64,000 bases of DNA from a virus (IMGVR_UViG_3300025372_000014:1-64000), one strand, 5' to 3'. Counted from the stretch's first letter, positions 7,906-27,635 are shown. The notes: generated by a model from the sequence alone, not told the origin. Made by a program: numbers and translations.

Positions 7906-8198
7906 GCGAACGCCAAATAGCCAAATAGACCGATCCAAATAAGCTAACGATTTTACGACAAATAGTGTAATAGTTATGTATACCAATGATCACTGCATGC
8001 TTACATATCTTGGAACAAACATTCCTACTTGTCGTATTTCTTTCTGCAATATACATGATATATAAAGGACTTACTGATGATGATAGTTTGAATAGATAGT
8101 TGTAAGTAGTTGTTTATTAATTATTTATAGAGCCGGGCCCCGCCGGGTGCTGTAACCCGCTCACCACAAACGAGTTACAGCTTCTCCCCCTTTACGGA

Positions 8199-8957
8199 CT
8201 ACTGGTTCTCCAGAACGAAGCTCCAGTATCGACTATCCGTATAACCTTGGTTGCGATCCCACCAGATGCAACGAGCAACATATGAACTAACATTCCACAT
8301 TTTGCACATTTCGATCCAATGACGCTCCATAGCGTGATACTGCTTGGCATCCTTGGACTGATCCAGACCGAAGAGTTGGAACAAGTGGGTATCCATGCAA
8401 GTGACCTCGGCAATAGCAGGGTAGATCATCTCAAGCGAGAAGCTGACCTTTGCCATGCCCAGACCAAGCACTTGATCTACGAGACGATCACGAAACTCTG
8501 ACCATGACTCGTCCTCTGCTTTCTTGTAAAAATCAAGGTTAGCCCAATAGTGTTCAGCGAAAGCCGTAATGAATTTTGTGCGGTTTTTATGAAGCCCTGC
8601 ACCACTCTCTACGATCCTACGCTCAAGTTCCTCTGGCTTGTTGAGCCACTCCCACCAGTTACGGATCATAAGATATCCGTTGATGTTGGAACGCCATGAG
8701 GTATGAACCGACATGAAGGCGAAGAGCCAACGCTGGAATACCTCGGAAGTGTTACGAGGAACAACGCTATCCCAATACTTGGAATACTCGCTGATCTCCT
8801 CGTCTAAAATTGAATTAAAAAACCTATCTACTTTCGTAGTGTTAAGGCTAGGGCGACGAGCAGGGATGCAATTAAAGTCAGTATCCCAGAATCGTGATTG
8901 TTCTGTTGCATTTGTATTAAGAGTTGAGATTGCGTTGCCGATGAAGTCGAGTTGCAT
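8199..8957 (-). CDS. HhH-GPD superfamily DNA glycosylase-like protein
   Basis: HhH-like VLGLGMAKVSF followed by CMDTH; N-terminal WLFAFMS helix as in Ogg2-type enzymes. Confidence 0.7.
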   Translation of the reverse strand: MQLDFIGNAISTLNTNATEQSRFWDTDFNCIPARRPSLNTTKVDRFFNSILDEEISEYSKYWDSVVPRNTSEVFQRWLFAFMSVHTSWRSNINGYLMIRNWWEWLNKPEELERRIVESGAGLHKNRTKFITAFAEHYWANLDFYKKAEDESWSEFRDRLVDQVLGLGMAKVSFSLEMIYPAIAEVTCMDTHLFQLFGLDQSKDAKQYHAMERHWIEMCKMWNVSSYVARCIWWDRNQGYTDSRYWSFVLENQ

Positions 8958-9006
8958 GGTGTATTGTGGTTAAGGGTGAGTCTTGATAATAATTAAAATT
9001 GACCTG

Positions 9007-9579
9007 TCACGCAAGAGTTTTCTGCGAAAAACTTTTCCAGATCATAAGGTCAAAATCAGCAGGAGTCATCTCATGCTTCCACGCCTCAGTCAAGAAGATT
9101 GCCTCAAGGACAGCATACTTCTTTTTAGTAGGAGTTTGCTTGGGCGCACTATATCCTTGCTCTCGTAGCCACTTTAGGATATGCACATCCAGAACCGCAT
9201 GACGAGCATCCTTGCGAGAATGAAGGATAAAGAAACGCGCCGTCTTACTTCCGATTCCCTTAACGCTTTCTAGCTCCTCAACCGAAACAGTCTTGAGCTT
9301 GCCCTTGAACATTAAAATACCTTTAAAAGCCTGTTCGATCCTGTTGTACTGACCCAGCTTATGATGGCGCATTGCATTACGTAGCATTATCCAACTACCA
9401 CCGAATAGATATTCTAAATGTTCAAAAGGAGTAGCTTCACCCCTAGACGAAAGAAAGTTTTCTAACTTTTGTGCTTGCGTCTTTGCCGTCTTGCCAGCAA
9501 CGAGGATTGCGAACATGAGAAACTCCTCAAGTTCAGCTTCGGTACGATTGTAGTTGGTGATTTGGGTAGGGTCTATCAT
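9007..9579 (-). CDS. 8-oxoguanine DNA glycosylase/AP lyase-like protein (Ogg2/HhH-GPD)
   Basis: VKGIGSKTARFF (HhH with catalytic Lys), AVLDVHILKWL (catalytic Asp), YAVLE..F, DLMIW. Confidence 0.82.
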   Translation of the reverse strand: MIDPTQITNYNRTEAELEEFLMFAILVAGKTAKTQAQKLENFLSSRGEATPFEHLEYLFGGSWIMLRNAMRHHKLGQYNRIEQAFKGILMFKGKLKTVSVEELESVKGIGSKTARFFILHSRKDARHAVLDVHILKWLREQGYSAPKQTPTKKKYAVLEAIFLTEAWKHEMTPADFDLMIWKSFSQKTLA

Positions 9580-9693
9580 TCCCCTATACTATGCCTTCTT
9601 GCCTATAGGTACAAGCACATTTTTACAATTTGGTAAGTCGCGCATCCTCAAGCACTTACGTCGCCGGGCCCCGCCGGGCTGTCAAGGGCAAAG

Positions 9694-9767
9694 TGGAGCG
9701 CCGTACTGGAGTCGAACCAGTCTAACAGGTTTTGCAGACCCGTGCCTAACCGCTTGGCTAACGACGC
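9694..9767 (-). tRNA. tRNA-Cys (GCA)
   Basis: Cloverleaf; anticodon loop CTGCAAA; CCA encoded. Confidence 0.92.
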
Positions 9768-9771
9768 ATTG

Positions 9772-9843
9772 TGGAACCCTTGGGACTCGAACCCAAAACC
9801 AATACCTTAAAAGGGTACTGCTCTACCATTGAGCTAGGATTCC
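9772..9843 (-). tRNA. tRNA-Lys (UUU)
   Basis: Cloverleaf; loop CTTTTAA. Confidence 0.9.
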
Positions 9844-9848
9844 AAGAG

Positions 9849-9924
9849 TGGCGCATCGGGCAGGGATCGAACCTGCGACCAAGAGTTTAGAAAACTCCTG
9901 CTCTATCCACTGAGCTACCGACGC
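9849..9924 (-). tRNA. tRNA-Arg (UCU)
   Basis: Cloverleaf; loop TTTCTAA; CCA encoded. Confidence 0.92.
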
Positions 9925-9928
9925 ATAG

Positions 9929-10001
9929 TGCCCCCGGAGGGATTTGAACCCCCAACCAATCAGTTATGAGCCGACTGCTCTGACCATTGAGCTACAAGGG
10001 C
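9929..10001 (-). tRNA. tRNA with CAU anticodon, probably Ile2 (lysidine type), alternatively Met
   Basis: Cloverleaf; loop CTCATAA; TTCAA T loop and overall layout resemble ileX-type tRNAs; lacks the initiator GGG/CCC anticodon stem. Confidence 0.8.
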
Positions 10002-10006
10002 GAAAT

Positions 10007-10082
10007 TGGTAGTGATGGTGGGATTCGAACCCACACTACAGGCATTTTAAGTGCCTTGACTCTGCCGTTGGTCTACATCACC
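10007..10082 (-). tRNA. tRNA-Leu (UAA) with short variable loop
   Basis: Anticodon arm AGGCA-CTTAAAA-TGCCT; 76 nt; ACCA end. Confidence 0.85.
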
Positions 10083-10092
10083 ATATTCAAAA

Positions 10093-10560
10093 TTATTTCT
10101 TTTTATTTTTACCTCGGTAAGTAGACGTTTGAGCATGGCAGTTTGGGCATAGTAAGGTTAGATTTTCTAGTCTATTGTCATTGTTGATTCCATTGATATG
10201 TTCTAATTCTAAAGGTATTTGTTGCCCCTGCCAAGTTGTATTTTGGCATTTGTGACACTTTTTATCAATGAAACCATATTGAAGAATTCTTCTTTTTAGG
10301 CTGTAGGTAGAAAGATTATGTTTTCCGTTTGCAACAAAAACTTCTTCATTTTTATACCTTTTCGTCCAATCGTGAGTCTTTCCTTTTAAATGTGCTTTAC
10401 CAGTAAAATGAGATGAATCTATATTTAATCTTTTAATATTAAAATGAACTATCTTATAGTTTCCTCCAGCTGGCTTAAGGTTTAATTTTTTAAGTACCTG
10501 CGCTATAGAAAAAGACGATTTAACTGCTTCTATAAACTCTTGGTCAGTATAGGTAGACAT
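10093..10560 (-). CDS. HNH endonuclease (tRNA-flanking)
   Basis: CHKC...LELEHINGINNDNRLENLTLLCPNCHAQT. Confidence 0.92.
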   Translation of the reverse strand: MSTYTDQEFIEAVKSSFSIAQVLKKLNLKPAGGNYKIVHFNIKRLNIDSSHFTGKAHLKGKTHDWTKRYKNEEVFVANGKHNLSTYSLKRRILQYGFIDKKCHKCQNTTWQGQQIPLELEHINGINNDNRLENLTLLCPNCHAQTSTYRGKNKKK

Positions 10561-10595
10561 ATAAGTATATTACACTAATAAGTCTACCCTAAACA

Positions 10596-10787
10596 CTACT
10601 TGTCCTTCTTGACAAACTCTTTCTTTGATGCCTTTGGAACGCAGTCCAGAACCAACTGCTTGTTGTACAACTGCTCTGCTATCATTGCCTTCCACTCCTC
10701 GTCGGTCACCCCCTTGGGACGCTTTGCCCTGAACTTGGGCATTGAGTTTCGGGTTTTAGTGATAGATGGGTTTGGCCAGATGTGCAT
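10596..10787 (-). CDS. small basic hypothetical protein
   Basis: ORF; start may be 10742. Confidence 0.55.
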   Translation of the reverse strand: MHIWPNPSITKTRNSMPKFRAKRPKGVTDEEWKAMIAEQLYNKQLVLDCVPKASKKEFVKKDK

Positions 10788-10839
10788 ATTTTTAATTAAT
10801 TTTTTGGACGAATGGTTAATTCAAGTGTAATATCATTAT

Positions 10840-11337
10840 ATGAAGATTTGCGCTAACTGTCAAAGGAGTTTTTCATCTTGTTGTAAAATAGATGGAGTAA
10901 AAAAGAATTTGGGTGCAAGAAAGTTTTGTTTAGAATGCTCACCTTGGGGGCAGCACAATACACGAAGCATAGGTAAAAGAAAAAACTGCGTAATCTGTTC
11001 AAAAAAATTAGAAGGCAATCAAACTATTTATTGTTCTAGATCATGTACCATGAAAAAAGCCGGTAGATGGTATAAACAACAAAAAGATCGTGCTATACAG
11101 AGAAAGAAAGATCTCGTTAATCAGTTGGGTGGAAAATGTAGCAAATGTGATTACAATAAAAATTTGGCGGCATTAGATTTTCATCATTTAGACCCATCTA
11201 AAAAGGAGACGCCAATGAATCTAAGCTTTTTATTAAAGATGAATTGGGAAAAATGTCTCAAGGAAGTATCTAAATGTATTTTGCTTTGTGCTAATTGTCA
11301 TCGAGAACATCATAATCCGCAATATGAAAATTGGTAG
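10840..11337 (+). CDS. HNH endonuclease with N-terminal zinc fingers
   Basis: Several CxxC; LGGKCSKC..ALDFHH..KCILLCANCHREHH. Confidence 0.9.
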   Translation: MKICANCQRSFSSCCKIDGVKKNLGARKFCLECSPWGQHNTRSIGKRKNCVICSKKLEGNQTIYCSRSCTMKKAGRWYKQQKDRAIQRKKDLVNQLGGKCSKCDYNKNLAALDFHHLDPSKKETPMNLSFLLKMNWEKCLKEVSKCILLCANCHREHHNPQYENW

Positions 11338-11424
11338 TCCTAGAAGGATTCGAACCTTCACCACGCAGGCGTCTCCCCGCTTACACTGTATAAGAGTGCC
11401 GTTCTGCCGTTAAACTATAGGACT
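11332..11424 (-). tRNA. tRNA-Ile (UAU) with ~23-nt variable arm
   Basis: AGTCCTA/TAGGACT-ACCA; anticodon arm GCACT-CTTATAC-AGTGT; GAAGG-TTCGAAT-CCTTC. Confidence 0.82.
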
Positions 11425-11526
11425 ATATTCGTTTATTATATAGTAGTTTTGGGCTATAGTCTAGTTTAAACTTAAAGTTTTGTATTAATCATTACTAATT
11501 GAATAAAAATCCATAGCCTCAGTATT

Positions 11527-11727
11527 CTAGTACGAATCTTCGACATCTTCTTGACAGAGATGACAGCGGAAGATTGAATTGAGCGGATTCGTACGGTCTT
11601 CTTTAATTATAAAAAGATCTAAACTTCCGTCAAGTACTTGCTCGCCACAGTATGTAGTGTCGCAGTCTCTGCAGTAGAAACGCATGTCTTCAGTGACGCC
11701 TTTAGGTGATAGTATAGCAGCGCTCAT
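11527..11727 (-). CDS. small zinc-finger protein
   Basis: CRDC...CHLC. Confidence 0.6.
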   Translation of the reverse strand: MSAAILSPKGVTEDMRFYCRDCDTTYCGEQVLDGSLDLFIIKEDRTNPLNSIFRCHLCQEDVEDSY

Positions 11728-11939
11728 TGTAATTCGTGTATGTTTGTTTCTTCTATGGTTTCTTTGATTCGGTAGTATTCACTGATATGTGGAACATCTT
11801 TATAGTTCAGATGAAATTCGTCTTGTTTGTATAGTTCACGGGCCCTATCTTCAGCATCCTGTCTATTGCTATACTGACAAGAGTACCGGTCTGACCACTT
11901 GCGTCGATTGTAAACTTCTATAGTAAAGTATCTAGTCAT
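11724..11939 (-). CDS. hypothetical protein
   Basis: ORF overlapping the next gene by 4 nt. Confidence 0.6.
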   Translation of the reverse strand: MTRYFTIEVYNRRKWSDRYSCQYSNRQDAEDRARELYKQDEFHLNYKDVPHISEYYRIKETIEETNIHELQ

Positions 11940-11940
11940 A

Positions 11941-12135
11941 TTATTTCCAAGTGAAGACTGACATGGTTGGTCTATTGGTATTAGGAATCATATAGCTTGC
12001 ATACCCTCTCTTAATCGCTTCCTCTTGCAGGGGAGTAACATTGAAGTATTGCATTGAGCATAGTGCAATAAATCCTCCAATAAGCAAACCAATAAAGGTT
12101 GCTCCAACCATGTCGGTGTCGTCGTATGGTCTCAT
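11941..12135 (-). CDS. small membrane protein
   Basis: One hydrophobic segment; start moved to ATG 12135. Confidence 0.6.
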   Translation of the reverse strand: MRPYDDTDMVGATFIGLLIGGFIALCSMQYFNVTPLQEEAIKRGYASYMIPNTNRPTMSVFTWK

Positions 12136-12136
12136 A

Positions 12137-12439
12137 TTAAGAAACGATTCCGGTAGTTGTACCATCTGGATTGTGCGCGATAATCAAGCTATTAGCAAAC
12201 CCACGCATAATGCATCGCGGTTGTCGCTTTTGCTCATGACTCTCTACATCAAGGCCAATTGTTTTGATTTTATTTACAATGCGGCACGAACCTTCCCAGT
12301 GGATGGTTATGACATTCCTGCCCTGCTTGTGGGCTAACGGCTTATTGTAGTGGTAAAAGAAACGTTTGGGCTTAGGAGTTTTAATTCCATACTGCCATTC
12401 TTTAATAGCCTGTTCTTTAGAGATAGTGGGAGTTTTCAT
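12137..12439 (-). CDS. conserved phage hypothetical protein
   Basis: RFFYHYNKP..ITIHW...QPR.IMRG; TTGACA-17-TATAGT-7-ATG fixes the start at 12439. Confidence 0.7.
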   Translation of the reverse strand: MKTPTISKEQAIKEWQYGIKTPKPKRFFYHYNKPLAHKQGRNVITIHWEGSCRIVNKIKTIGLDVESHEQKRQPRCIMRGFANSLIIAHNPDGTTTGIVS

Positions 12440-12631
12440 GACCCTTACTATATGACTAGTTGGCCAGTGTGTCAAAGGAATTCTACAATTTGTTCATGTA
12501 AACGAAAGGCGACTTTCTATACATGTCAATGATCATATACAAAGAATCTTTATTTGTGTAAGCTTTTGATTATTAGAGATTTACGGCGCCGGGCTCCGCC
12601 GGGCGATATAACCTATTGATACCGAGGGGTT

Positions 12632-12705
12632 TCGGAGTGACAGGATTCGAACCTGCGACTTCTTGCTCCCAAAGCAAGCGCACTACCAAGCTGTGCTACA
12701 CTCCG
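12632..12705 (-). tRNA. tRNA-Pro (UGG)
   Basis: CGGAGTG acceptor; loop TTTGGGA. Confidence 0.92.
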
Positions 12706-12769
12706 TTAAAACCTTTACACGGAAATGCCGCCCTCGATACCCCTATCGAGGACGGCTATCCCCTATCCC

Positions 12770-13627
12770 TTATTTTCTCCGTGCGACAAACCTTCCCTTA
12801 TTGTCCCTGACATTGTGATAATGGTCGCCATTAGGCTTGACACCATAGTCCTCGTAGTCGTTGTAGTCGTCCTCCTCATTCTCGTCCTCATCCTCATCAT
12901 AGCCATCGTAGTAGCTATCGGGAAGCGGAGCGTCGAATGTACCGACAACCTCGTACCGAGAAGTACGCATCTTCTGGAAGTCGCAATCGTGAGGAACGCT
13001 GACCACATCAGCAGGATCAACCTTGACGATCACGACCCGACGATCACCACTACCAAAATTGGTAGCATACTCAAGCGAACCGACATGGAAGCCATAACTG
13101 CAACCCATGTTAGCATCGTCGCAAACCGAGTTGCGAGGCATTGATAGAACCTCACCAACCTTATTGCTGAACTTGCCAGAGTAGTGATCCATCCAGTCAG
13201 AACGGACGCTCTTATAGCCGAGGAAACAACCATCTGGCGTGATGGGCATATTTCCATGCTCAAGGAACGAGTAGAGTTCCGTAACACTACGCCGAGATGG
13301 ATTCTGCATCAGTCTGGTAAGAAACTTAACCAGAGGAGTAGGCGAGATTCCCTCCTTGATAAAAGCCAAAATCTTTTCCACGATGGTTCCATGCACCACT
13401 TCACCATTGAAGTAGACATGACCATTAACAACTTCGACACTACCCTCCGACCAATCGGAGACTACACTTGCCGTGTCGATGAGATCAAGGAGTTCCTGTT
13501 CGGTAACTCCCTGCTTGACTGCTTCGATAACACGACCCCAATTCTCATGCGAACTCTGTATCGTGTACGGAGTGCCGTTGAGGATTGCGGTAAGCGAGTT
13601 ATCAGTTAGGATGTATGGGATGTTCAT
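12770..13627 (-). CDS. rIIB: RIIB-like protein
   Basis: NPS..SVTELYSFL..PITPDGCFLGYK..VLSMPRNSVCDD..GCSYGFHVGS.EYA..VKVDPADVVSVP.D..KMR; downstream of rIIA. Confidence 0.9.
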   Translation of the reverse strand: MNIPYILTDNSLTAILNGTPYTIQSSHENWGRVIEAVKQGVTEQELLDLIDTASVVSDWSEGSVEVVNGHVYFNGEVVHGTIVEKILAFIKEGISPTPLVKFLTRLMQNPSRRSVTELYSFLEHGNMPITPDGCFLGYKSVRSDWMDHYSGKFSNKVGEVLSMPRNSVCDDANMGCSYGFHVGSLEYATNFGSGDRRVVIVKVDPADVVSVPHDCDFQKMRTSRYEVVGTFDAPLPDSYYDGYDEDEDENEEDDYNDYEDYGVKPNGDHYHNVRDNKGRFVARRK

Positions 13628-13820
13628 AACTCCCTCATCATCTACTTTTTTGCATAGGGTGACAAGATATTTTTACAAGAAAAATACGAATAGTCATAAG
13701 TCATTCGCTATCAACAAGTTACGGCACCGGGCCCCGCCCGGCGATGTTAGTAATATTAAATGAGTTGGGGATGGAGCCACACCACATAGCTCCACCCCCG
13801 TTCCCTCACCACAACAATCT

Positions 13821-16049
13821 TTAAGCGTTGAAGTAGCTTGCTATGACCTTGAAGAACTGGTCACTACCACCCCAACGGAAGTTTCTCTCTTCGATATAAG
13901 GAAGCAGAGGAAACCTAGCCTCAAACGCTTTGACACGACCAGCAATATCATTAGCAATCTTGGTAGCGTTATCGTTCTTCTTAACATTCTTGCCTTGGTC
14001 AAGACGATCAATCTTATCCATCATGGTAAGAGCAACCTGCTCCTTGGCTTTAGAGTTGTTATCGTTATTACGAGAGTTGATGCAAGCAAACAAGTCTTGT
14101 AGTGTCTTGCGATCATCGTCACTCTTGATGAGAGACAAGATCAAGTCTTGATGCTTTCTGTCTGTCATACGATAGAACGCAGAACCATTAAGCATCATGC
14201 AACCCAAACGATAGGCAAGCAACTTGTCGATGTCGATTGCGTTAGCAGAGATGTAGTTATCAAACTCTTCACGCATCTTATCCTCAACGCTAACCCATCC
14301 GCTACCAATCTTATTCTTGAGTTGACCACCTGTGAACCCAACAATAGTAGCAGGGTTAATCGTCTTGAATGGGGCAACTAATTCCTTGAGAGTGCTATTA
14401 CCGATTCTTTCACCATTAAGAACTGCTTGATAGTTATTGATCTGGATATAGATACCCGAACCAGTCTTTTGATCGACCGCACAATCCTTCCAAGAGCTAC
14501 GATCCCTCCAAGAGTTAATGCTAGGGTCGAGCATTAAAGCACCAGTACGCTTTGCCTTGGTAGTAGTGAACGATGCGGTATTGGTAGGCAGGGTAATCGT
14601 AGATGCAAACATGAAGTCCTCATCAGCAAACCCATTAGCCTTCTTGAGATCAGCAATCTCTGTAGCATATTGAGCATACTCCGTAGGCTTGAGAACCTTT
14701 GTGACTTCAACAGCACCCTGCTTCTCTACCTTCTGCATGGTCAACAGATAGACGCTCTCCTTATTAGATGCTTGGGAGGCAAGGTAACGACCATACCTAG
14801 CACCAGAGTTGTAATGCCCAAGGTCATTAAAAACTAATTTAATGTCATGCCTAGCTTGGAACTCGTTCATGTTGGTAGTCTGGATATTACCATTCCAGTT
14901 CTGACGATACCGCATCATGTGGAAGCGTAGCGTCTTGGTAGCGTCACGCTTTGTGATGTCAACATTATCAGAGGTGATAACCTTGCCGTTAAAGGTGATC
15001 TTTTTAACGATGTTACGGATGTGATAGAAACCGCTAACCATATTGTCCAACTCGGACATGAACTTTTTAGCAGAGTATTCGCTCTTGGCAGAGGCATTGA
15101 TCTGTTTCTGAATGTCATCCACCAGCACCTTGATGATCTCTCCTGCCTTCGTCTTGATATTGCCAATAGTCCTGTCGGTGTATTGCAAACCCTCACGACT
15201 TGCCGCAACATCCAAGTCACCGATACCAAAATCGACGACGATTGAACTATTGAACAAGTAACTGATCTGTGTGTCGAGATCATTACCAGCAACAAACTTT
15301 AATGCACTTCTGTCGATAGGGTATGCGATGTTACCCATGACTGCCATCGGGCGATTGTCCTCTAGGTTTTCATAAAAAGCCCAACCCCTGCCAGTAGAGA
15401 TAGGCTTGGCAAAAACCTTATCATACTCTGCCTTGTCCATGCCGATAATTTCGGGACGAACCTTAAAGAATCGGAGGTAACGCTTAACAGCCTTGGTGAA
15501 GTAGTTGGAGTCCTCGCCCTTAACTGGAATGACGATCTCTACACCATTCTCTTCCGTAGTGTCCTTGGTAGATAGCAGGGCAATCTGACCGATACCGCTA
15601 GGGTCGATGAAGGCATTATAGGAACGAACTTTGCCTTCGGTAAAGCTATTGATAACAAAGTTGTCACCATAAGCAAAAGCACTCTTTGAGCCTAGACCCA
15701 ACTGACCGATAAAAGCGTTGCTCTGACGCTTCGTGCTTTCTCCATAGAAGCAGTAGATGTCTTGAATGTCCTGCTCGGAAAGTCCACGACCAAAATCACG
15801 GATCTTGAAAACCTTTGACAAGGGACTAGGCATCGTGATCTTGATAGCAGTATTAGGCTTGCCAGCTTCGACATTAGCATCGTAGGCATTGGCAGAGTAT
15901 TCACGCACGACAGCACCGATCTTGTCGGTGTAAAGCTGATTGCGTAGAACATTGAAGATATGGGCGAGTCCAGTATCTTTGATGCCGAAACTGACGGCAG
16001 ACTTAATTCCCTTGGATTCTAGCGAGTTATATGTAGTGTTTTGGATCAT
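13821..16049 (-). CDS. rIIA: RIIA-like protein (GHKL ATPase N-terminal domain)
   Basis: LY..K..AVVREYSANAYDA, IRDFGRGL, YGESTK, IGQLGLGSKSAFAY; start set by the TTGTCA-17-TATTAT promoter. Confidence 0.9.
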   Translation of the reverse strand: MIQNTTYNSLESKGIKSAVSFGIKDTGLAHIFNVLRNQLYTDKIGAVVREYSANAYDANVEAGKPNTAIKITMPSPLSKVFKIRDFGRGLSEQDIQDIYCFYGESTKRQSNAFIGQLGLGSKSAFAYGDNFVINSFTEGKVRSYNAFIDPSGIGQIALLSTKDTTEENGVEIVIPVKGEDSNYFTKAVKRYLRFFKVRPEIIGMDKAEYDKVFAKPISTGRGWAFYENLEDNRPMAVMGNIAYPIDRSALKFVAGNDLDTQISYLFNSSIVVDFGIGDLDVAASREGLQYTDRTIGNIKTKAGEIIKVLVDDIQKQINASAKSEYSAKKFMSELDNMVSGFYHIRNIVKKITFNGKVITSDNVDITKRDATKTLRFHMMRYRQNWNGNIQTTNMNEFQARHDIKLVFNDLGHYNSGARYGRYLASQASNKESVYLLTMQKVEKQGAVEVTKVLKPTEYAQYATEIADLKKANGFADEDFMFASTITLPTNTASFTTTKAKRTGALMLDPSINSWRDRSSWKDCAVDQKTGSGIYIQINNYQAVLNGERIGNSTLKELVAPFKTINPATIVGFTGGQLKNKIGSGWVSVEDKMREEFDNYISANAIDIDKLLAYRLGCMMLNGSAFYRMTDRKHQDLILSLIKSDDDRKTLQDLFACINSRNNDNNSKAKEQVALTMMDKIDRLDQGKNVKKNDNATKIANDIAGRVKAFEARFPLLPYIEERNFRWGGSDQFFKVIASYFNA

Positions 16050-16199
16050 GGTGTTAGTAGTGTTGTGTGAGCCTTCATAATAGACTTTCTTGTATGGCAT
16101 GACAAGAATTATTTTCACAATTTTACAGGTATCTCTAAGTTGTTGAAAAGGAATGACTTACAGCGCCGGGCCCCGCCGGGCTAAAGGAGGGCCCATAAA

Positions 16200-16232
16200 C
16201 CAAAAAGAGCCCCCCAGTAAAGGAGGGCCCTT
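16200..16232 (-). terminator. probable intrinsic terminator
   Basis: GC-rich hairpin followed by a U-tract on the minus strand, after the peptide ORF. Confidence 0.55.
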
Positions 16233-16254
16233 ATCCCAGCCTCAAAGGAGGCCC

Positions 16255-16398
16255 CTAGTACCGATGCTTGTGAGTAGAAGCTCCAACTGAATGGTGTGAG
16301 CGACCGCTAGAAGAACTATGCTTCCACCCTGCGGCTTGCGCTCCAGAAACGCTCACGAAAAAGATTGCGGTAATGACGGCTAGGATTGTTTTATTCAT
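16255..16398 (-). CDS. secreted His/Ser/Gly-rich peptide (WKHS type), absent from the ORF track
   Basis: MNKTILAVITAIFFVSVSGAQA|AGWKHSSSSGRSHHSVGASTHKHRY; paralog at 27636-27791. Confidence 0.75.
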   Translation of the reverse strand: MNKTILAVITAIFFVSVSGAQAAGWKHSSSSGRSHHSVGASTHKHRY

Positions 16399-16564
16399 TG
16401 GTTGTGTATAGGTTGTATTTGTAGTTTTCTATTTTTCCATTGTTAAACATACGATAGTGCCAGTTACCATGGGTAACATCCATCATGTGTCCGAACAACA
16501 GAGAGTTCTTTGGATTATATTCATATCCAAATAGATTAAGGAGGAATGTGATGGGGTCTTTCAT
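16391..16564 (-). CDS. 57-aa hypothetical protein, absent from the ORF track
   Basis: MKDPITFLLNLFGY...YTTNE; stop overlaps the start of the peptide ORF. Confidence 0.6.
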   Translation of the reverse strand: MKDPITFLLNLFGYEYNPKNSLLFGHMMDVTHGNWHYRMFNNGKIENYKYNLYTTNE

Positions 16565-16589
16565 ATTTATAGTTTGTGGGTTTTTGTTT

Positions 16590-17123: not shown

Positions 17124-17508
17124 AATAGGGATTTACGAATGCCAAATCCAATAAATAGGTTGGAGATTTACTAGCCAAATTCCCCTTAATAGCTGTATTA
17201 GCTAGCCCGATTTCCCCTAAATAGGGATTTACGCCCGATATCCCCCTAAATAGCTTTTTGGGAATACCCCTGTCCCCTTATATCAGAAACTAATATCATT
17301 TCTGTAGTACTAACTGGATGGATTGTTTGTATTTCCACTATATATTAGTATATCACTATTTGGACAGCTTGTCAAGCCATGTATCTATCTGGTAATCAAC
17401 GACTTACGAGACCGGGCCCCGCCCGGTGGGCGTTGTCTTACAAGTGATCAGTTAGGTAAGCGCATATAATTAAACCTACGGTAATTAGAGGGACTAGGTA
17501 TCGCATTT

Positions 17509-17718: not shown

Positions 17719-17890
17719 ATGATCATCATACTATAATTTGTCCCTAGCACAACAAAAAAAATGCATGAATAAAAATTAATTTATTAAAAAAAGCTTGACA
17801 TACCACTTGTCTTACTGTATACTACCGGGCGGGGCCCGGCGCTGTAAACCCTTGAGAATCAGTAACTTACACAAGCCAGAATCGTGTCAA

Positions 17891-18730: not shown

Positions 18731-19135
18731 TGAGCCTTCATCATCCATCTTTTTGGCGTTCGGTACAATACCTTTTTTACAATTTTGTGCGATTTTTTTG
18801 TATAAAGCGCGCTTGACATTCGTTCGTTTATATAAAGCAAAATGGCTTTTACTTTAGACAACCCACAGAGCCAGTATTTATGCGGCTCCGCGGCCTATTT
18901 GATCTGTAGCCGGTGGCCCACCCGTAGAGCCAGTATCTATGCGCCTGTGCAGTTGTCTTACAAGCCGCCGGGCGGGGCCGGGCGCCGTAACCCGTTGATA
19001 TTCAGCAAGTTACAGCGATTGGTGGTTGGGATGTTATATTAGCGCATTTTGTTTTCCTTTTTTATTTGTTTTTATTATAGTGAATTGCGATAGCCACTAA
19101 CAAGCATATTAGTAGAAAAGTCATGGCTCGTCACG

Positions 19136-19825: not shown

Positions 19826-19866
19826 GGTTCTATGATTTTGATTATTTTTTGCGATAGTGTCAACGA

Positions 19867-20373
19867 TCAATTTTCTGGATCCCAGTCATTTGATCCTTCA
19901 CGAATTAGATGTCCTTCTGGCACACGATCCGTTGCCCATCCCATAAAGTTTTCCCTAGTGATTCCGTCGAGCGTATCCTTTGCCGCTTGCATGGCATCAG
20001 CTTTGAACTTTTCAGCCTTGCCCTTGTATTGCTTGCTCACAGGAGAATCTTGCCAGAGACGGATATTCTCCCATGTAAGACCACGCACGATGTCCTCCGA
20101 TGTCGTGAGAAAGTAGGCGAAGCTCTCGCCGATGTAGTGAAGGAAACCATCTCCGAGCGTTTGTCCGTTGCTTACCCATCCTCCCTCGTCGTCAATGTTG
20201 CTTGTGACATTTGCACCAGCGATACCAAGGTTGAAGTAGCGATTGAAAGAGCGTTCGATCTGTTGGCGAGTGCCAGAAAGACCGAAAGCCAATCCGTTGC
20301 CATAGGATGAAATCGCTTCAGAGGCGAAGGCGTTGAGGGTTGCGTTAGGGGTTTGGGTGTTGTTGTTTGTCAT
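19867..20373 (-). CDS. hypothetical protein
   Basis: 168-aa ORF; TTGCAA-17-TAGTTT-6-ATG. Confidence 0.75.
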   Translation of the reverse strand: MTNNNTQTPNATLNAFASEAISSYGNGLAFGLSGTRQQIERSFNRYFNLGIAGANVTSNIDDEGGWVSNGQTLGDGFLHYIGESFAYFLTTSEDIVRGLTWENIRLWQDSPVSKQYKGKAEKFKADAMQAAKDTLDGITRENFMGWATDRVPEGHLIREGSNDWDPEN

Positions 20374-20605
20374 GGTTCAAAACTATCCGATGCCGTCTCG
20401 AATTGCAAAATCTTTTTTCATTTTGGCGAAACTTTTTTTGTGCGAAACTTGTTGACAGCCGTAGAGCTAGTGTTTATGCGGCTCCGTGGACTAGTTCGTC
20501 TACGGGTGGGTGGGTATCCGTACAGCCCCATTCTATGCGGCTCCGCGAGGGGTGGGCAACCCGCCGGGCGGGGCCCGGTCACGTAAGTCATTGATTTGTA
20601 GTAAC

Positions 20606-21037
20606 TTAGAATGATTGCGTCTCTCTAAGGTATGTTAGGCGATTATTGGATATTAAGTAACTCTCTTCTAGCCTCTGAAGTGGACGATTTAATCCAGTAT
20701 CATAAATTGATCCGTTTATGATAGCAAAAGCGTGACGATTAGTTGCAACATAGTAGCGACCAGTTGGGTTCTCTTTAATGAACCTCTGAATGGTGATACT
20801 TTTGTAACGCTTTTTTTTGTATGTTATGCCGTACTCCTTTTTGGCATATTTAAGTAATTTTTCTGGATCAAAACCATGACCATTTTTTCTGCCAGCTTCA
20901 ACGCCTATCTTGTGAGCATACTCGTAAGGTATGCCAGCACTTGCCGCCAATGCACGAATCGTGCAGTCTCTAAACTCTCTGATTCCAGACCTTGCTCTTC
21001 CAGCGTCAGAGCAGATTGTTCGTGATTTTAAATCCAT
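20606..21037 (-). CDS. conserved phage protein (DCTIRALA...HAFAI..G..YD)
   Basis: Cys/His/Asp motif pattern, possibly a papain-like fold. Confidence 0.7.
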   Translation of the reverse strand: MDLKSRTICSDAGRARSGIREFRDCTIRALAASAGIPYEYAHKIGVEAGRKNGHGFDPEKLLKYAKKEYGITYKKKRYKSITIQRFIKENPTGRYYVATNRHAFAIINGSIYDTGLNRPLQRLEESYLISNNRLTYLRETQSF

Positions 21038-21146
21038 TTTTATTTGAGAAGAAAGTTGGAGCCCATGCGAGTGTTTTACGACATCCTTTTAACTCGCACA
21101 CCCAATGAAGTCGAGGTGCTAGCGGGACTTTGCTAGATGATTGCAA

Positions 21147-21419
21147 CTAGGCGATCAACTCAAAGCGGTTGATGCGATCCAAGCGGAACCTGCGGATGTC
21201 ATCCACAGCAGGGACATAGCAAGTGATTCCCTCACCAGCAGGATTGTTCACTCCACGATCCTCCTTGTAGAAGAACTTCCCGAAAGGACGGGAAACTTGA
21301 TACTCCTTCGGCTCAAAACCATTCGTCGCCGCCGAGTAGACGATGCGATAGGTTCTGCACAAGCCGAGCTTGTAAGCGAGTTTCGTGAAGAGGAGGTTGA
21401 GACGGATTGCGGTTTTCAT
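21147..21419 (-). CDS. stand-alone WYL-like domain protein
   Basis: N-terminal RIVY and C-terminal IRRFRLDRI. Confidence 0.6.
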   Translation of the reverse strand: MKTAIRLNLLFTKLAYKLGLCRTYRIVYSAATNGFEPKEYQVSRPFGKFFYKEDRGVNNPAGEGITCYVPAVDDIRRFRLDRINRFELIA

Positions 21420-21481
21420 GGTAGTGTTGTTTTTGTTTTGTTGTTTCTGTATTTTGATTATTAAAAATTTTGGGTGATGTG

Positions 21482-21691
21482 TCAAGAGACAATCTTGATA
21501 TTTTTTGCGGCTCTGTATGCCGAGATCATCTCACCGATGCGGTTACGACTGGACTTGGTGAAGTAACTATTAACTCCCCAGTTGGCTTTGATGTTCTTGT
21601 GAGCTTTGACTTCGCTCTGAATTGCAATCGCCAGATAGGCACGGATGTTGCAGACATTGGTGAAGTTGAGTGTGGTGTTCTTATTTTTCAT
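21482..21691 (-). CDS. hypothetical protein
   Basis: Leaderless promoter; resembles 23859-24050. Confidence 0.65.
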   Translation of the reverse strand: MKNKNTTLNFTNVCNIRAYLAIAIQSEVKAHKNIKANWGVNSYFTKSSRNRIGEMISAYRAAKNIKIVS

Positions 21692-21927
21692 ACTTCTAGT
21701 ATAAGCAGACTTCGCAGAAAAAACGAGAAAAATCGTATGGCTAGATGAAATTATTTTTATTGAAATCGCTTGACAGCCCTAGCCCTAGTATTTATGCCGC
21801 TCCAAGCTATATTCGTCTACAGGCAGGGGGTCGGCTCTAGAGCCAGTGTTCATGCGCCTCTACAGATGATCACCGGCTGACCGGGCGGGACCCGGCGCCG
21901 TAACCCCTTGGTTATCAGCGCTTTACA

Positions 21928-22194
21928 TTAATCGGTCATTTTAGTGACGAAAACAGGAGTATATTCACCCATGTAAGCACCAGCGATGTTAAATTCAAAG
22001 AATTCCCATGCTTCATCTCTATCCATTCCTTCGGACATTAGCTTGGTGATAATTTTATTGGTATCGTAAGCAATCACAGATGGGCGACCAGCTTGCGAGG
22101 TAAAACCAATGATGCAGTCATCATACCCATCGGCCTTCAGAACATTTTCGTCAAGGCATTCTAGGAGATCGTCAAGATCAATTTTAGAACTCAT
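21928..22194 (-). CDS. conserved acidic phage protein
   Basis: ADGYDDCIIG..AYD..EA.EFFEFNI.GAY.GE.TP. Confidence 0.75.
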   Translation of the reverse strand: MSSKIDLDDLLECLDENVLKADGYDDCIIGFTSQAGRPSVIAYDTNKIITKLMSEGMDRDEAWEFFEFNIAGAYMGEYTPVFVTKMTD

Positions 22195-23521
22195 AGCCGC
22201 CTCCTATGTCGTTCCTGTCTTCAACAGAAGAATCTAGATATTGGTCTGGCTCTACTTCGTCCATGCTTCTAGGCGTGTGACCTAGTTCATGCTCCTCCAT
22301 GTAGTATTCTGGCTCGTTGCTGTTATCGGGGTCGTTGGGGTCTTGCATAATCTGATTAAAATGTTTTTTGGTTATGGTGTCAAGCGTTGATCGTGGCGCA
22401 GAACTCTCTGAATCCACGCACGATGTGTGAGATATCGCCGGTAGTGCTACAGAGTGCATCGGCAATGCTTATCGCACAATCACGCTCAAGCTGAAGCTGA
22501 AGCAATTTCTTCATCACTTCTCGCTTAGTAACTCCGGCAGTAGACTCTTCAAGAGCATCCAGCATTAGATCAAAGTCCATTTTAGTAAAATTCTTTTTGA
22601 TCATTTTATTTAATTCCTAACTGACTGAGTTTCTTTTTGAATACCGCATCTTGGATTTTCTGCCAGCCTTCCTCTTGGAATGGCGTTTGCGCGAGGGACT
22701 CATCATTCCAATGAAACGATGGGATGCCCCAAGAATTAGCCTCATAGGTTGCGGCACTATGCTTAACGGCAAGGTGTCGCCAAACTAAAGAGGTGGCGAG
22801 TGAGTCGATCACGCAGAAGGTGATGGCGACGATGGACATGACTAGGATGTTGCGCGTGGTGTTGTTCATTATTGTGTTTATTTAGGGTTAGTTTAACTGA
22901 TAGCCGTAGTTGATACCAAGAGAATCTTCTCTCTCAAGATCACCGATCTGCTCCTCCCATCCAGCGATGTCGTCCTGCAAGGTCTCTAGTGACTGCTGAC
23001 GAATGATGTAGAGAGGATGTTCTGGAAAAAGCATCGACATCTGCTTTTCGATTGCCGCGATCTCTTTTTCCGCTTGTGCAATTTTTTTGTTCAGTTTGGG
23101 GATGAGGTAGTGCATAGAGTAATTAAAAAGAATTTTTATTGTTCAGTCAAGCTTTCCGAGATTTTTCCATTCTCTTCTTGGCTTTAAGCTCCTCAAAAGA
23201 ACTTACGCCATTTTTTTCATATAGCTCCTCAAGACCTTCTTTCGCACCTTCACGAATTGCGGTGATAATCTCAAAAAGAAAACCGGCAACCTTGAAAAGA
23301 ATCCAAAGGGCGACAGAGACGAATACGATGGTTTCAGCGATGTGTAGTATGGTGTTCATAAAGTAATTAAAATGTTTTTTTATTGTTCAGTCAACCCAAA
23401 TGTTCGGATTGCCATGCTCTTTGACGATAGCCTCCAACTCATCAAGCCAAGCCTCGTACTCGGAGGCGTAAGCGGCGAGATCGTCAACTGCGGTTTCTTT
23501 AGGGTCGAGTAGTAGTTCCAT
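22184..23521 (-). other. cassette of six small hypothetical ORFs (22184-22348, 22380-22604, 22606-22869, 22888-23115, 23147-23359, 23387-23521)
   Basis: Tightly packed co-oriented ORFs, two with TM segments; duplicated TTGACT-17-TTTAAT promoters. Confidence 0.65.
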
Positions 23522-23858
23522 GATTAGAGAATACCATAAAAAGAGTTTTGTGCAATAATTATTTATAAAAAAATTTCGACCGAATGGGAGAAAACGATTG
23601 ACAGCCTGCAGGCCCAGTGTTTATGCGGCTCCGCGGCCTACTTCATCTACAGCCGGTAGGCTAGCCTCAGAGCCAGTATCTGTGCGGCTCCGCGAGGGGT
23701 GACCGACCCGCCGGGCGGGACCGGGCGCTGTAAGTCGTTGATTTTGAGTTACTTACGAAAAAGGGATATGATGAGCAATGTTAGTGGATAAAAGTAGGTA
23801 AAAGCCGCCAAGATTACGCCAGAGATTGCTAGGATGTTATCAATCATATTATTAGATG

Positions 23859-24896
23859 TTAAAGCGCACGAATTTCGCGCAGTGCGGAGATATTTTCCTT
23901 GATTTCGTTAGTCCAGAAGTCCACGGAGCTAACATGGCGAATCTGTTGCGCATTTCGACGACTTTGCCACGATTTAGCGATGAGAGATCGGATGGCAACA
24001 CGGGCAGTGAATTTGGTTGAAGTGGAGAGAGTTTTTTGTGTGTTTTTCATATTGTTAGTTATTTGGTTAGTTGTGATGTTATTATGGGCGAGATTGGATG
24101 CCTTCTCTGACGGCTTTTATAGCCTTGCCAGTAGCCTCGTATTCGTCCTTGATGGGAGAGTCACGATAGACCGCAGATAACATGAGCAGATAATGCTCCA
24201 TGATTTTAGCGGCTTCAATGATCTGTTTGTCGGAGTAAGGAGAGATGTTTCTCATGATAGTTATAGGGTTAGGGTTAGAGGGATTGAGCAAAGCGAACCT
24301 TTGCCATGTTGTAGTACTTAACGCCAGACCATTTCGGGTCTTTGTACTGCTCACGGAAGCTGTCCCTAGTTTCTTGGTAGCGTTCGCTCATCTCACGAAG
24401 AGTGAACCAGCGACCAGCGGTGAAAGTGGGATCGGTCATCCCATAGTTTGTACCGAGGAAGGTGTGAATCTTGATCTCGTACTCGCCATCATTCCAGCGA
24501 GTGTCGGAGATCAGTTCTTGAACTCCTGCGCCTCCCCAGTTGATGATGAGTGCCATCCCGATGTTCGGGGTGAAGCTAGGAGTGAAAGTGACAGGCGAAG
24601 TGGTGATTGAGTTGTTCATATTTTTATTTCCTTTATTTTGTATGCTACTAGTGTATCAGAAACCTTTCCGAAAAGCAACGCTAGAGTTGTGGTTGAGTGT
24701 TGTTCGGGGCGACACATCCTGTCCCGATTTTGCGCTTCACCCAATGAGTGTTTGGGCAAGGCTTGCCGATGGTTGCGGAGCCTACTGGATACCACGCCCT
24801 TTCCCATCCGACGATTTGACCGACCAGATCGCCCTCTTGGACGATTTCGCCTGTGTTGAGTGTCCTGTAGTTGTTGAGGTTTTCTTTATCTTTCAT
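23859..24896 (-). other. cassette of small hypothetical ORFs (23859-24050, 24082-24255, 24275-24619, 24681-24896)
   Basis: Co-oriented ORFs between repeat copies 11 and 12. Confidence 0.6.
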
Positions 24897-25118
24897 GCTA
24901 TAAGCGTATCACAGGTCATGCAAAAATGCGACAAAAATCGTTCGGTTACCTACGGGTCATCACGACACATCCTGTCACCGCGTACCCAGAGTGTTAACAT
25001 TCATCTACAGCCCATGCCCTGCCTGTAGAGCTAGTGTTTATGCGGCTCCAGCGTTGTCTTACAACCCGCCGGGGGGAGCCGGGCGCTGTAAGCTGTTCTC
25101 TGTCAACAACTTATGCTT

Positions 25119-25502
25119 TTACTCTTTCACTGCTACTAACATCCCATGAATACCATTCCGATTTGCCTCTAGAATTGTGTCTACATTATCATCAATGTGT
25201 AGAACACTATTTAACATCTGTAAATGTGGAAGTTTTGCTTCACCTTTTGTCGCAATCATTCCAGTAATCGGAAGTTTATGATCCGCAACAAATTGCTGAA
25301 CCTCATGCATATGATCCCAGCTTCTGAAACTAACAATCCAGATATCATACCCATGCTTTGCCTTATCAAAGACAATTTCAAAGATTTCCTCTATAGGAGT
25401 TAACACTCCATTATCCAGATGCTCAATTGGATTTTCTGGATTCCAGACTCCATGAGTCTTTGCTAGTGTTTCGTCGAAGTCTACTGTGATTACTTTATTC
25501 AT
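25119..25502 (-). CDS. HAD-superfamily phosphatase-like protein
   Basis: Motif I VDFDETL, motif II IVS, motif IV HIDD. Confidence 0.75.
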   Translation of the reverse strand: MNKVITVDFDETLAKTHGVWNPENPIEHLDNGVLTPIEEIFEIVFDKAKHGYDIWIVSFRSWDHMHEVQQFVADHKLPITGMIATKGEAKLPHLQMLNSVLHIDDNVDTILEANRNGIHGMLVAVKE

Positions 25503-25899
25503 ATATTTTACTGGTTAAGATTGTCCTCTTTCAAATTCTTCTTTGCGATCTCTGCGGCGATCTTGTTCAGCCTCATCACCCTTTCCATGAGGGTTTCTGC
25601 TTTGATCGTTTGGTTGTTCTTATCTTTCATGGTTAAAGAATAGCATGGAGCCGCAAGAATTACAACAAAAAAATTCGCATGGGATAAACTTTTTTTTATA
25701 AAAAATGCTTGACAATGGCATTGTCTTACACTATACTACCGGGCGGCGCCCGGCCTTGTAAGTGGTTGATTACCAACCCTTTCCGTACTTCTGTCGTCTT
25801 TTGTACAATTTTTTGCTTGACACGGCGCGTTGGACAGGCGCATACGGCTGTCTTACCTTGATGTCTTTCAGTTGTATTACAAAGCGTTCGGTTTTCATA

Positions 25900-26130
25900 T
25901 TATTCAGCAGGGCAGTTCTCCCAGTACCAGTCAGCATAGGAGAGTTTCCACTCTTCCTCGAATGCGATCATCTGCTCACCTGTGTAGGTGAAAGTCCGCA
26001 TCAGTTGACGCTTGATGATTCCCAAGTCGTACTCCTCAAAGCTCCTCTCAACAAGCGTTGAAAGCTCGCGGTCATTGATCGCGCGAAGCATGAGTTCCGA
26101 AGTGGTGTTGTGGGTGATGTCAATTTTCAT
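25900..26130 (-). CDS. hypothetical protein
   Basis: Start moved to ATG 26130. Confidence 0.55.
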   Translation of the reverse strand: MKIDITHNTTSELMLRAINDRELSTLVERSFEEYDLGIIKRQLMRTFTYTGEQMIAFEEEWKLSYADWYWENCPAE

Positions 26131-26620
26131 ATTCTGATTATGAGGGTTAAGGTTAATTTTGTAAAGCGTAAAAATTACTTTGCAGTAACTTTTTTCTGTG
26201 CTTGTTTCCAAGCATTCCAGCGGACTTTTCTGGCAGTCCAGATTCTGTTTTGACGCTCCCAGCGAGCGACTTCCCACTCTTGAGAAGTTTGATTGTTATT
26301 CTTATTGTTCATGCTGTAAGCATACCATGATGACCCGAAAAACACTACAAAAATCTTTCGGCTATCGCAGGTAGGAACGACACATCCTGTCAGTGTGTGC
26401 CCATAGTGTTAACATTCATCTACAGCCTATACCCTACCGCTAGAGCCAGTGTTTATGCGGGTCTACGGGTGGTGACCGGCTGACCGGGCGGGGCCCGGCG
26501 CCGTAAGTTGTTGATACTCAGGGCTTTATCTCTCTCATGATTCCTGCGATGTAAAATCGCCAATTCTTTGGCTTATGAACCAAACAATTTAGGTGAAGTG
26601 AGATGCGATAGAGGCTCATG

Positions 26621-26911
26621 TTAAGTGTTCTTGATTTTCATCTCTAATTGACGAATTTTTGCTTCAAGCTCTTTCGTATGCCTACGATAGAAAGCCAAGT
26701 CTTGCTCGTAAGTTTTAACCGCAAAAAGCAAGTTCTTGACTTGATCTTCTGCAGTTCCAGAGAGGATGATCGGATCGTCAAAGCGTTCCTTATTCATTCG
26801 CTTCTGTTCGGAATCCATGATGGCGGTCTGGATTCTATCGTGTCTAGCTTCTGGAGTTTCACCGCCACAGGTTACTTTGAAGCTACGGAGAGGGTATTTG
26901 TATGATCTCAT
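26621..26911 (-). CDS. hypothetical protein with C-terminal coiled coil
   Basis: 96-aa ORF. Confidence 0.6.
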   Translation of the reverse strand: MRSYKYPLRSFKVTCGGETPEARHDRIQTAIMDSEQKRMNKERFDDPIILSGTAEDQVKNLLFAVKTYEQDLAFYRRHTKELEAKIRQLEMKIKNT

Positions 26912-27635
26912 ATTCTTTATTTATTTTCGATGTGTTTGTTTATATTGTCAATCAGCTTTTCGTTAGCCTTTGCGTAGGCTTCCAGATTCCTTGCGAACGC
27001 TTCAAGGCGAGCTTTGAGAGGATTTTGTTTTGGGGCTTTTCTTCTTTTCATGCTTTCAATGTATCAGAGTGATTCCGTTTTGTCAACCGATTTTTTTTGT
27101 TTTTTTATTCTTCTTCTGGTTCAAACTCTGCCCATTCTCCGCAGTCCTTGCAGAGGGCAATGTAATCGTTCTGTTCCAGAACTGGTGAGAGTGGACTATT
27201 GGAAGCCCCACAGCAGTTGCTGACGAGCTTTGTTTCTTTGAGTGTTTCTTTATCTTTCATGCTATGAGCATAGCCCCAAACCGAAAAAATTACAACAAGT
27301 ATTTTTCATTTTGATAAACTTTTTTTTGACGATTTGGCTTGACAGTCAAGCCGCCGACTTGGTGTCTACCTTCATCCGCAGGCAGGGGGGTGTCTGTAGA
27401 GCTAGTGTTTATGCGGGTCTACGCTGTAAGACAAGCCGACCGGGCGGGGCCCGGCGCTGTAAGTGCTTGATGTTCAGCTACTTATCGCGTTGCCTTTGCC
27501 AGACTCTGGCATAGATGTTATATACGCGCTTTTCATACTCTGGATGTGAGCCTAACTTCACGCCTCGCCGACGCAGTATGTCGGCGAGGTGACGCTTGAG
27601 TTGTATCTGTTGGACTATTGTCATACAAGCGAGTA

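Follow-up and report, generated by a model that had tools for sequence, protein, structure and literature searches.

In the 64,000-nt stretch of viral DNA analysed here (IMGVR_UViG_3300025372_000014:1-64000, hereafter the window), an early region of about 20 kb is divided by 15 copies of a composite intergenic element, and cassette order, orientation and content differ between related phages, with the joints lying in the GC-rich core of this element. The phages that carry it are a clade of uncultured freshwater phages of ~140-155 kb, in which the elements mark the joints between separately promoted cassettes of an early, hyperplastic region. Each unit spans 46 bases, composed of a 15-bp GC-rich core (CCSGG-CGGGG-CCSGG), a 4-bp linker and a 27-bp palindrome, and reads as a composite double-stranded DNA site for proteins, not as an RNA hairpin. 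The interpretation we favour, and to which we give about an even chance, is that of a protein-bound boundary or upstream module whose core repeats would allow cassettes to be shuffled through short homology, in the manner of PeSLs (promoter-early stem-loops), the mobile regulatory cassettes of T4-type phages (Arbiol et al., 2010, PMC2839356; Comeau et al., 2014, PMC4122927).

The core was sought with the pattern CCSGGCGGGGCCSGG, allowing at most 2 mismatches, which returned 15 sites in the window against 0.01 expected from shuffles; all are intergenic, as a first-pass annotation of this DNA had stated, and all lie within 8133-27454, with none elsewhere in the 91,233-nt contig to which the window belongs. 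For the palindrome, a weight matrix was trained on 61 distinct copies from six genomes; at a score above 12 it picks out just 16 positions in the window, each adjoining a core, and no palindrome stands there without one. The best offset between core and palindrome is exactly 4 bp in 61 of the 61 distinct copies, which extends to the relatives the fixed distance first noticed in the window, and the same matrix bears out that copies 1 and 3 (cores at 8133 and 12589) have a palindrome on both sides. Neighbouring copies are 413-2925 nt apart, in agreement with the 0.4-2.9 kb reported initially, and copies 2 and 3 do abut tRNA 3′ ends (Table 1). The core lies on the minus strand in the six left copies and on the plus strand in the nine right ones, seven of which form the 3′ end of a longer repeat of 95-130 nt containing a duplicated box, and the array region has a GC content of 44-51%, as against ~35% in its flanks. 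A literature search with the core sequence gave no paper, and a BLAST comparison of positions 17300-21000 with GenBank phages, in near and distant modes, gave no match; the claim of an undescribed system holds for the element family and not, as yet, for its mechanism.

Core and palindrome start occur together in nine IMG/VR contigs and in dozens of lake-metagenome contigs, and in five related genomes the copies are again clustered in a single region of ~18-20 kb. Cutting the genomes at the cores and matching the pieces between them confirmed that the elements divide the region into cassettes. With Z denoting the flank, D the glycosylases, T the tRNAs, rB and rA the rIIB and rIIA cassettes, and E, F and H1 the next three (H1 carrying a 268-aa DUF932 gene), the order is Z, D, T, rB, rA, E, F, H1 and onwards in the window; Z, rB, rA, T, D, E, F and onwards in genome G002; and Z, then inverted rA, rB, T, then D, F, H1 and onwards in G001, G003, G004 and G005. 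At two-sided joints the palindromes keep to their cassettes and change partners across the core: the one that closes the D cassette at its 3′ end (window 8152-8178) is identical in five genomes, always on the D side, and is met across the core by the Z palindrome, a T-side palindrome or none, while the Z palindrome faces D, rB or rA depending on the genome. Since the palindromes stay with their own cassettes, the exchanges lie in the core ± 4 bp; core orientation at one joint differs between genomes. Presence and absence can be followed in a 425-bp cassette (G001 18635-19059) that is missing from the 97-98% identical G003, where one hybrid core is left; it contains one minus-strand open reading frame of ~95 aa with a promoter of leaderless type, A/T-rich DNA upstream and a promoter directed outwards. 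Informative positions place the crossover of this recent deletion within 22 bp, between position 4 of the core and position 6 of the palindrome. The same cassette is found in metagenome contig L092, of a third lineage (75-78% identity), at another array position, its homology ending at both cores, and further new cassette adjacencies appear in other metagenome contigs. The expectation that breakpoints between relatives fall in the cores was thus borne out at the order, orientation and presence/absence joints that were checked. Alignment ends lie within 10 nt of elements in 20% of cases versus 5% at random, a real but modest excess, and junction tables were used instead. No short metagenome contigs with terminal repeats, of the mini-circle type, were seen.

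Joints that map to the core at a resolution of up to 22 bp, and a two-core cassette that is present, absent or repositioned, are also what would be left by a dedicated site-specific, integron-like cassette system in a lytic phage, in which an unrecognised recombinase would cut the 15-bp core and the palindrome would provide an accessory bend. A near-invariant core, a 5-5-5 format that recurs with other sequence in a sister lineage, the rigid 4-bp distance to a site of IHF consensus, and the purging of free CCSGG from the array in two genomes, where 1 stands against ~13-20 expected, and not elsewhere would all suit such a system. We nonetheless consider it unlikely. Phage_integrase (PF00589) and Resolvase (PF00239) domains are absent from G000-G003, two of which are complete and in which positive controls were found, and Y1_Tnp (PF01797) is absent from the window's contig and two complete relatives, so that the initial remark that no recombinase is visible in the window can be widened to these records and the two complete genomes lack tyrosine, serine and Y1 recombinases alike. 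Tyrosine recombinase cores have overlaps of 6-8 bp and arms of 9-13 bp. The arms and spacer of 5 bp each found here match no known recombinase core, the 5-5-5 layout differing from a crossover region of 6-8 bp (tyrosine) or 2 bp (serine) enzymes; the S positions of the arms are direct, not inverted, in about 38 of the 61 copies; and core orientation at the same joint varies between genomes. Recombination in the longest shared tract explains all events equally, exchange confined to the core ± 4 bp or to a 22-bp tract being compatible with site-specific and homologous exchange alike. Membership among att-type recombination sites, as first proposed, is not supported, for want of a recombinase in the two complete relatives, for the atypical geometry and for S positions that are not inverted in about 39 of 60 copies.

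The purge itself is marked: the window array holds 1 free CCSGG against 13.5 ± 4.6 expected, and that of G001 holds 0-1 per 10 kb against ~10. Arrays are, however, purged of GGCC and CCGG in every lineage, no matter which centre it carries, and the loss of CCSGG may therefore be restriction avoidance; the idea that each lineage purges its own core pentamer was rejected as not clean, given that GGCC and CCGG are purged in all arrays. We also observed that free CCSGG/CCGG is nearly absent from window 8000-28000 and from G001 1-20000 and as common as expected or commoner over the remainder of both genomes, that CCWGG and GGWCC are depleted genome-wide, and that the cores are composed of the same tetramers that are purged around them. 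A scheme of integron-like early-region exchange by a recombinase of unrecognised class, with a core that would co-evolve with the enzyme between lineages (CCSGG-CGGGG-CCSGG versus GGGCC-CCTCG-GGCCC), seems to us rather unlikely.

What the element is recognised as can be gauged from its conservation. Between orthologous copies, identity is 0.94 in the core, 0.78 at the palindrome consensus positions, 0.46 at the N positions and 0.44-0.47 in the flanks, a profile which, together with the rigid 4-bp spacing, argues for sequence-specific recognition of duplex DNA. Base pairing gives the complementary result: in a set of 60 distinct copies, 77.8% of cells pair in the helices proposed for core and palindrome (shuffle mean, 80.0%), and every measure of covariation is at or below that of shuffles. 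The middle positions of the core arms (S3/S13) are GC in 21 copies, CC in 19, GG in 19 and CG in 1, so that the core “stem” is mostly mismatched, its central pair being unpaired in about 39 of the 60; the N3 positions of the palindrome mostly do not pair, as had been noticed, with columns 31-33 unpaired in 26-38 of the 60. Among 102 copies from distant relatives, no covariation was found within or between palindromes. A hairpin or cruciform of core and palindrome, and palindrome-palindrome pairing in the relatives, were accordingly rejected for lack of covariation, and the early preference for a DNA-protein site over an RNA hairpin is upheld by the missing covariation, the central mismatch and the conservation profile. 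As to the protein, IHF, which bends DNA, has the consensus WATCAANNNNTTR. Reversed, this gives YAA-N4-TTGATW, the form shown by the core-proximal palindrome half, which matches exactly in 7 of the 15 window copies and 25 of the 61 distinct ones, and within one mismatch in 44 of the 61 (background, 1e-4 per position). The core-distal half fits more poorly, and the claim that each half matches the IHF consensus thus stands for the proximal half and less well for the distal one. A profile search that found its positive controls detected no HU/IHF gene (PF00216) in the window's contig and two complete relatives.

An element at the 3′ ends of transcription units, in a 20-kb region with only two canonical terminators, could instead act as RNA, by terminating or attenuating transcription, by marking transcripts for RNase processing, or as the structured 5′ leader of antisense RNAs from outward promoters. 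Conserved promoters fire directly into core and palindrome, the core strand shows a wobble-compatible bias, and the stem-loops of PeSLs terminate transcription (PMC2839356). Against this stand the absence of covariation in the 61 copies and in the 102 from relatives, a central core pair mismatched in most copies, the lack of a U tract at the element, and its occurrence in both orientations relative to genes, unlike the RNA hairpin of fixed orientation of a nut boxB, an intrinsic terminator or an RNase III site. Rfam returned tRNAs only, both for the whole window at gathering threshold and for 17.3-27.6 kb at E<0.5. Where a promoter adjoins, moreover, the start site would fall inside the core, and the core hairpin could therefore not form. 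A signal at the RNA level thus strikes us as quite improbable.

Promoters are neighbours of the element and not part of the conserved unit. Strong sigma-70 promoters, with at least 10 of 12 matches, number only 14 near the 61 distinct copies; those within 120 nt of an element are almost all on the core strand, and many copies have no adjoining promoter. Two layouts recur: in one, the -10 box ends 1-2 nt before the core (18-20 nt in two copies), as in the window at 17795-17823 and 25709-25737; in the other, the -35 box starts 5-6 nt past the palindrome, as at 17375-17347, an arrangement conserved in five genomes. Genes from 8 to 29 kb are all on the minus strand, and the promoter of copy 7, with its A/T-rich upstream region, is conserved in all five relatives and yet directed against the neighbouring gene. 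Both plus-strand promoters, at copies 7 and 13, are near-consensus sigma-70 sequences with A/T-rich DNA upstream and fire antisense into the 3′ end of a neighbouring minus-strand gene. Codon-phase analysis shows that the gene behind a plus-strand promoter reads on the minus strand, and plus-strand genes behind these promoters were rejected on that analysis and on PHROG hits.

Core orientation follows the cassette and not its position: cassettes of rIIA, rIIB and the tRNAs share the direction of their core in every case, in the order core, palindrome, promoter, gene, and right-arm cassettes are always opposed to it, in the order gene, stop, palindrome, core. In the window, the polarity is mirrored about a point at ~17.4-17.8 kb, near a local minimum of cumulative GC skew at 16-18 kb, and it is mirrored in G002 too. 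Such a mirror, along with a G-rich non-template strand directly past a strong promoter and core pentamers that contain the CCGG otherwise purged from the region, might denote a DNA signal with polarity that serves replication, nicking or entry, such as origins that work by priming or R-loops, sites of strand-specific nicks, or a sink for proteins of restriction or anti-restriction. The mirror does not hold in G001, with 12 plus and 1 minus copies, or in G003, with 11 minus and 1 plus, for which origin-centred polarity was rejected; orientation goes with the cassette; and fifteen origins in 20 kb are implausible. We hold a polar signal of this kind to be very improbable.

Distant loci, located through a GP88-family protein, lack the CCSGG core and contain 9-25 palindrome matches per locus, arranged as palindrome, GC-rich centre, palindrome, with a lineage-specific centre of 15, 21 or 23 nt; that of one sister lineage, GGGCC-CCTCG-GGCCC, has again the 5-5-5 format. 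In these relatives both palindrome halves fit the IHF consensus, and in a sister lineage with 48-nt spacing 123 of 132 half-sites are at most one mismatch from WATCAANNNNTTR. Palindromes common to loci with differing centres show that the palindrome is the old, widely shared part and that the centre changes between lineages. The one-sided form seen in the window is derived, because a GTAAGACAA remnant occupies the place of the second palindrome. Contig L076 displays what is taken as the ancestral layout: an intrinsic terminator follows the gene, next come palindrome, centre and second palindrome, and then either an A/T-rich region with a sigma-70 promoter or a conserved antisense TTGACA-17-TGTTAT box. 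This position of the distant palindromes, between a terminator and the next promoter, points to a boundary or upstream module of transcription units as the primary role.

On the reading we favour, then, the palindrome would bind a DNA-bending protein, most likely host IHF, and the core a second, lineage-specific factor, the two together forming a boundary or upstream module that would set up or insulate neighbouring early transcription units. Short-homology recombination or template switching between cores would delete, invert, excise and re-insert cassettes, and these would shuffle there because core, linker and the first palindrome bases (~22 bp) are the longest sequence common to all joints. 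Shuffling could thereby be explained without a dedicated enzyme, as with the PeSLs of T4-type phages.

Several observations weigh against this account. The part given to IHF derives from a consensus match, and a perfect dyad fits a homodimer better than it fits IHF. The core is conserved far beyond the need of a homology patch and its 5-5-5 format recurs as GGGCC-CCTCG-GGCCC, which suggests a specific reader, possibly a recombinase. For homologous recombination, 15-22 bp in common is little, and searches that recovered their positive controls turned up neither RecA nor RecT homologues in the window's contig and two complete relatives. The conserved outward plus-strand promoters, antisense to the neighbour gene, are unexplained by a simple boundary role. 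G-T mismatches on the core strand outnumber A-C at three palindrome positions (72 vs 19), as RNA from that strand would also give, and an AT-rich relative has kept only the GTAAG/CTTAC arms.

Among known systems, PeSLs resemble the element in being GC-rich intergenic repeats concentrated in a hyperplastic early region, where the genes are small and of unknown function, and in the varied positions they take beside strong sigma-70 promoters, some immediately past the -10; in both, a cassette is made of motif, promoter and one or a few genes, and indels, replacements and rearrangements between related phages are jointed in the motif. They differ in that the conserved unit is here a core 4 bp from an IHF-consensus palindrome and not the promoter, that a stem-loop reading fails (no covariation, central mismatch, no U tract), that many copies are promoterless and right-arm adjoining promoters point away from the genes, and that the structural genes of the phage are not of T4 type, nor was UvsX/RecA found. 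With attP sites of tyrosine integrases and the attC/attI sites of integrons, the element shares a short core, roughly inverted arms, an asymmetric spacer and an adjoining IHF-consensus site, and the arrays have in common that their cassettes are bounded by the repeat and that gain, loss and repositioning of cassettes have their joints in the core. Integron attC sites are served by the IntI integrase, fold as a bottom strand with extrahelical bases, and bound promoterless cassettes. Here, by contrast, there is no integrase of known class, arms and spacer are of 5 bp, arms are often direct, no folded single-strand signature is present, and the cassettes carry their own promoters in a lytic phage. 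The RIB/RIP elements (BIME-1, a bacterial interspersed mosaic element) of Escherichia coli place an IHF site between two REP (repetitive extragenic palindromic) sequences at the 3′ ends of transcription units, and REP hairpins carry a conserved 5′ tetranucleotide. They too are extragenic repeats that join an IHF-consensus site to GC-rich palindromic DNA between transcription units, and either kind could plausibly act as a boundary or in DNA topology; the layout is inverted here, with IHF-like palindromes flanking a GC centre, the sequences are unrelated, and the setting is a phage and not a chromosome. REP/BIME systems with RAYT proteins differ further, the Y1 (HUH) transposase PF01797 being absent here and hairpin covariation lacking. 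BIMEs have been proposed as barriers between supercoil domains (PMC6907758).

Table 1. Elements, adjoining promoters and associated features of the array (window coordinates).
Feature	Position	Strand	Details
Copy 1, two-sided	8102..8178	-	palindrome 8102-8128, core 8133-8147, palindrome 8152-8178 (3′ end of D cassette)
Copy 2	9633..9678	-	core 9664-9678, palindrome 9633-9659; 15 nt past tRNA-Cys 3′ end (9694)
Copy 3	12558..12634	-	core 12589-12603, palindrome 12558-12584; weaker second palindrome ~12608-12634 beside tRNA-Pro (3′ end 12632)
rIIB	12770-13627	-	
Copy 4	13696..13741	-	between rIIA and rIIB
rIIA	13821-16118	-	
Copy 5	16135..16180	-	upstream of rIIA; preceded by intrinsic terminator 16232-16205
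Copy 6	17381..17426	-	palindrome end 5 nt from -35 of minus-strand promoter 17375-17347 (TTGACA-17-TATACT); same layout in five genomes
Copy 7 and plus-strand promoter	17795..17870	+	promoter 17795-17823 (TTGACA-17-TATACT), core 17825-17839, palindrome 17844-17870; promoter opposes genes
Copy 8	18855..19013	+	core 18968-18982, palindrome 18987-19013; ~110 nt extension upstream
Copy 9 and extension	20452..20609	+	stop codon of 143-aa gene inside palindrome arm
Copy 10 and extension	21770..21926	+	
Copy 11 and extension	23598..23756	+	
Copy 12	25000..25114	+	core with 2 mismatches; extension shorter
Copy 13 and second plus-strand promoter	25709..25784	+	promoter 25709-25737, core 25739-25753, palindrome 25758-25784; gene to the right on minus strand (codon-phase analysis)
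Copy 14 and extension	26415..26529	+	
Copy 15 and extension	27339..27485	+	
GCATAAACACT box	18873-18942, 20469-20479, 21787-21855, 23616-23626, 25033-25043, 26448-26458, 27404-27414	-	

Besides the rII genes, the array encodes seven tRNAs, an HNH endonuclease, two Ogg-like glycosylases, a DUF932 protein and a GP88-family protein. Each right-arm extension has one or two copies of a GCATAAACACT box, set inside GAGCC...GGCTC on the gene strand and seen nowhere else in the window; in the relative L058 the box follows the second palindrome. A promoter specific to the phage is one possibility for the box, and a site for some other protein is another; a role as late promoter was rejected, the box being confined to right-arm extensions and not found before structural genes. 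Between the GP88-family gene and copy 8 (19040-19103, minus strand) lies a promoter-like TTGTTA-18-TATAAT with a Shine-Dalgarno sequence and a two-codon mini-frame (ATG CGC TAA). A common AAATTGTAAAAA...TTGTACC motif, which may be a translational or regulatory signal, directly precedes several start codons (9595-9634 and 18749-18788, minus strand, and also upstream of rIIA in G001), and CTAACAT and CTAACACTAG motifs stand at gene 3′ ends right before terminators and elements (17896-17960, minus strand, and gene ends of L076), the three copies at 17905-17955 belonging to a longer intergenic module conserved in relatives. In all relatives the conserved flank adjoining the array contains the gene of a 335-aa RuvB-like AAA+ protein (window 5871-6878, plus strand), with matches to RuvB_N and the winged-helix RuvB_C and a PHROG label of clamp loader; it was considered as a phage enhancer-binding protein and rejected, the similarity being generic to AAA+ proteins and not one of motif.

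Other lineages show further peculiarities of their early loci. Sigma-54-type boxes (YTGGCACG-N4-TTGMW) number 5-20 per locus of 13-21 kb, against ~1 expected, in sister lineages (L058, L060, L063, L065, L067, L068, L075 and L049; for example L065:3808-8400), lie on the gene strand in most of them, with the first box 3-13 nt after the second palindrome, and are often in tandem at 33-nt steps. Arrays of sigma-54 promoters would be unusual in a phage early region; no gene of an enhancer-binding protein was found in the two sigma-54-box records searched (behind L065 and L049), and the window has one degenerate box only, at 17874-17889. Tandem TATTTGCAACTC iterons follow two elements in distant relatives (L076:7900-8010 and 13540-13640; L061:14161-14220) and may mark an origin; they are absent from the window. 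The AT-rich relative L051 (7083-13389) has a terminator, a TTGTAAGAT-N17-ATCTTACAA inverted repeat and a highly conserved TTGACT-N17-GATACT promoter, an analogous and different module that has the GTAAG/CTTAC arms alone in common with the window palindrome.

With these arrays, the shuffling of early-gene cassettes at conserved intergenic motifs has a second and independent example, outside the T4-like phages, and the shuffled cassettes probably carry functions in host takeover and anti-defence. Their architecture is sharply defined and their joints can be read at base-pair scale in metagenomes, which makes two questions testable: whether modular exchange in lytic phages is a by-product of regulatory repeats or is catalysed, and whether phages insulate dense early transcription units with architectural proteins of the host. 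The palindrome module is common to a wide set of uncultured freshwater phages that differ in their centres and even in promoter types, and it therefore offers a handle for annotating their early regions.

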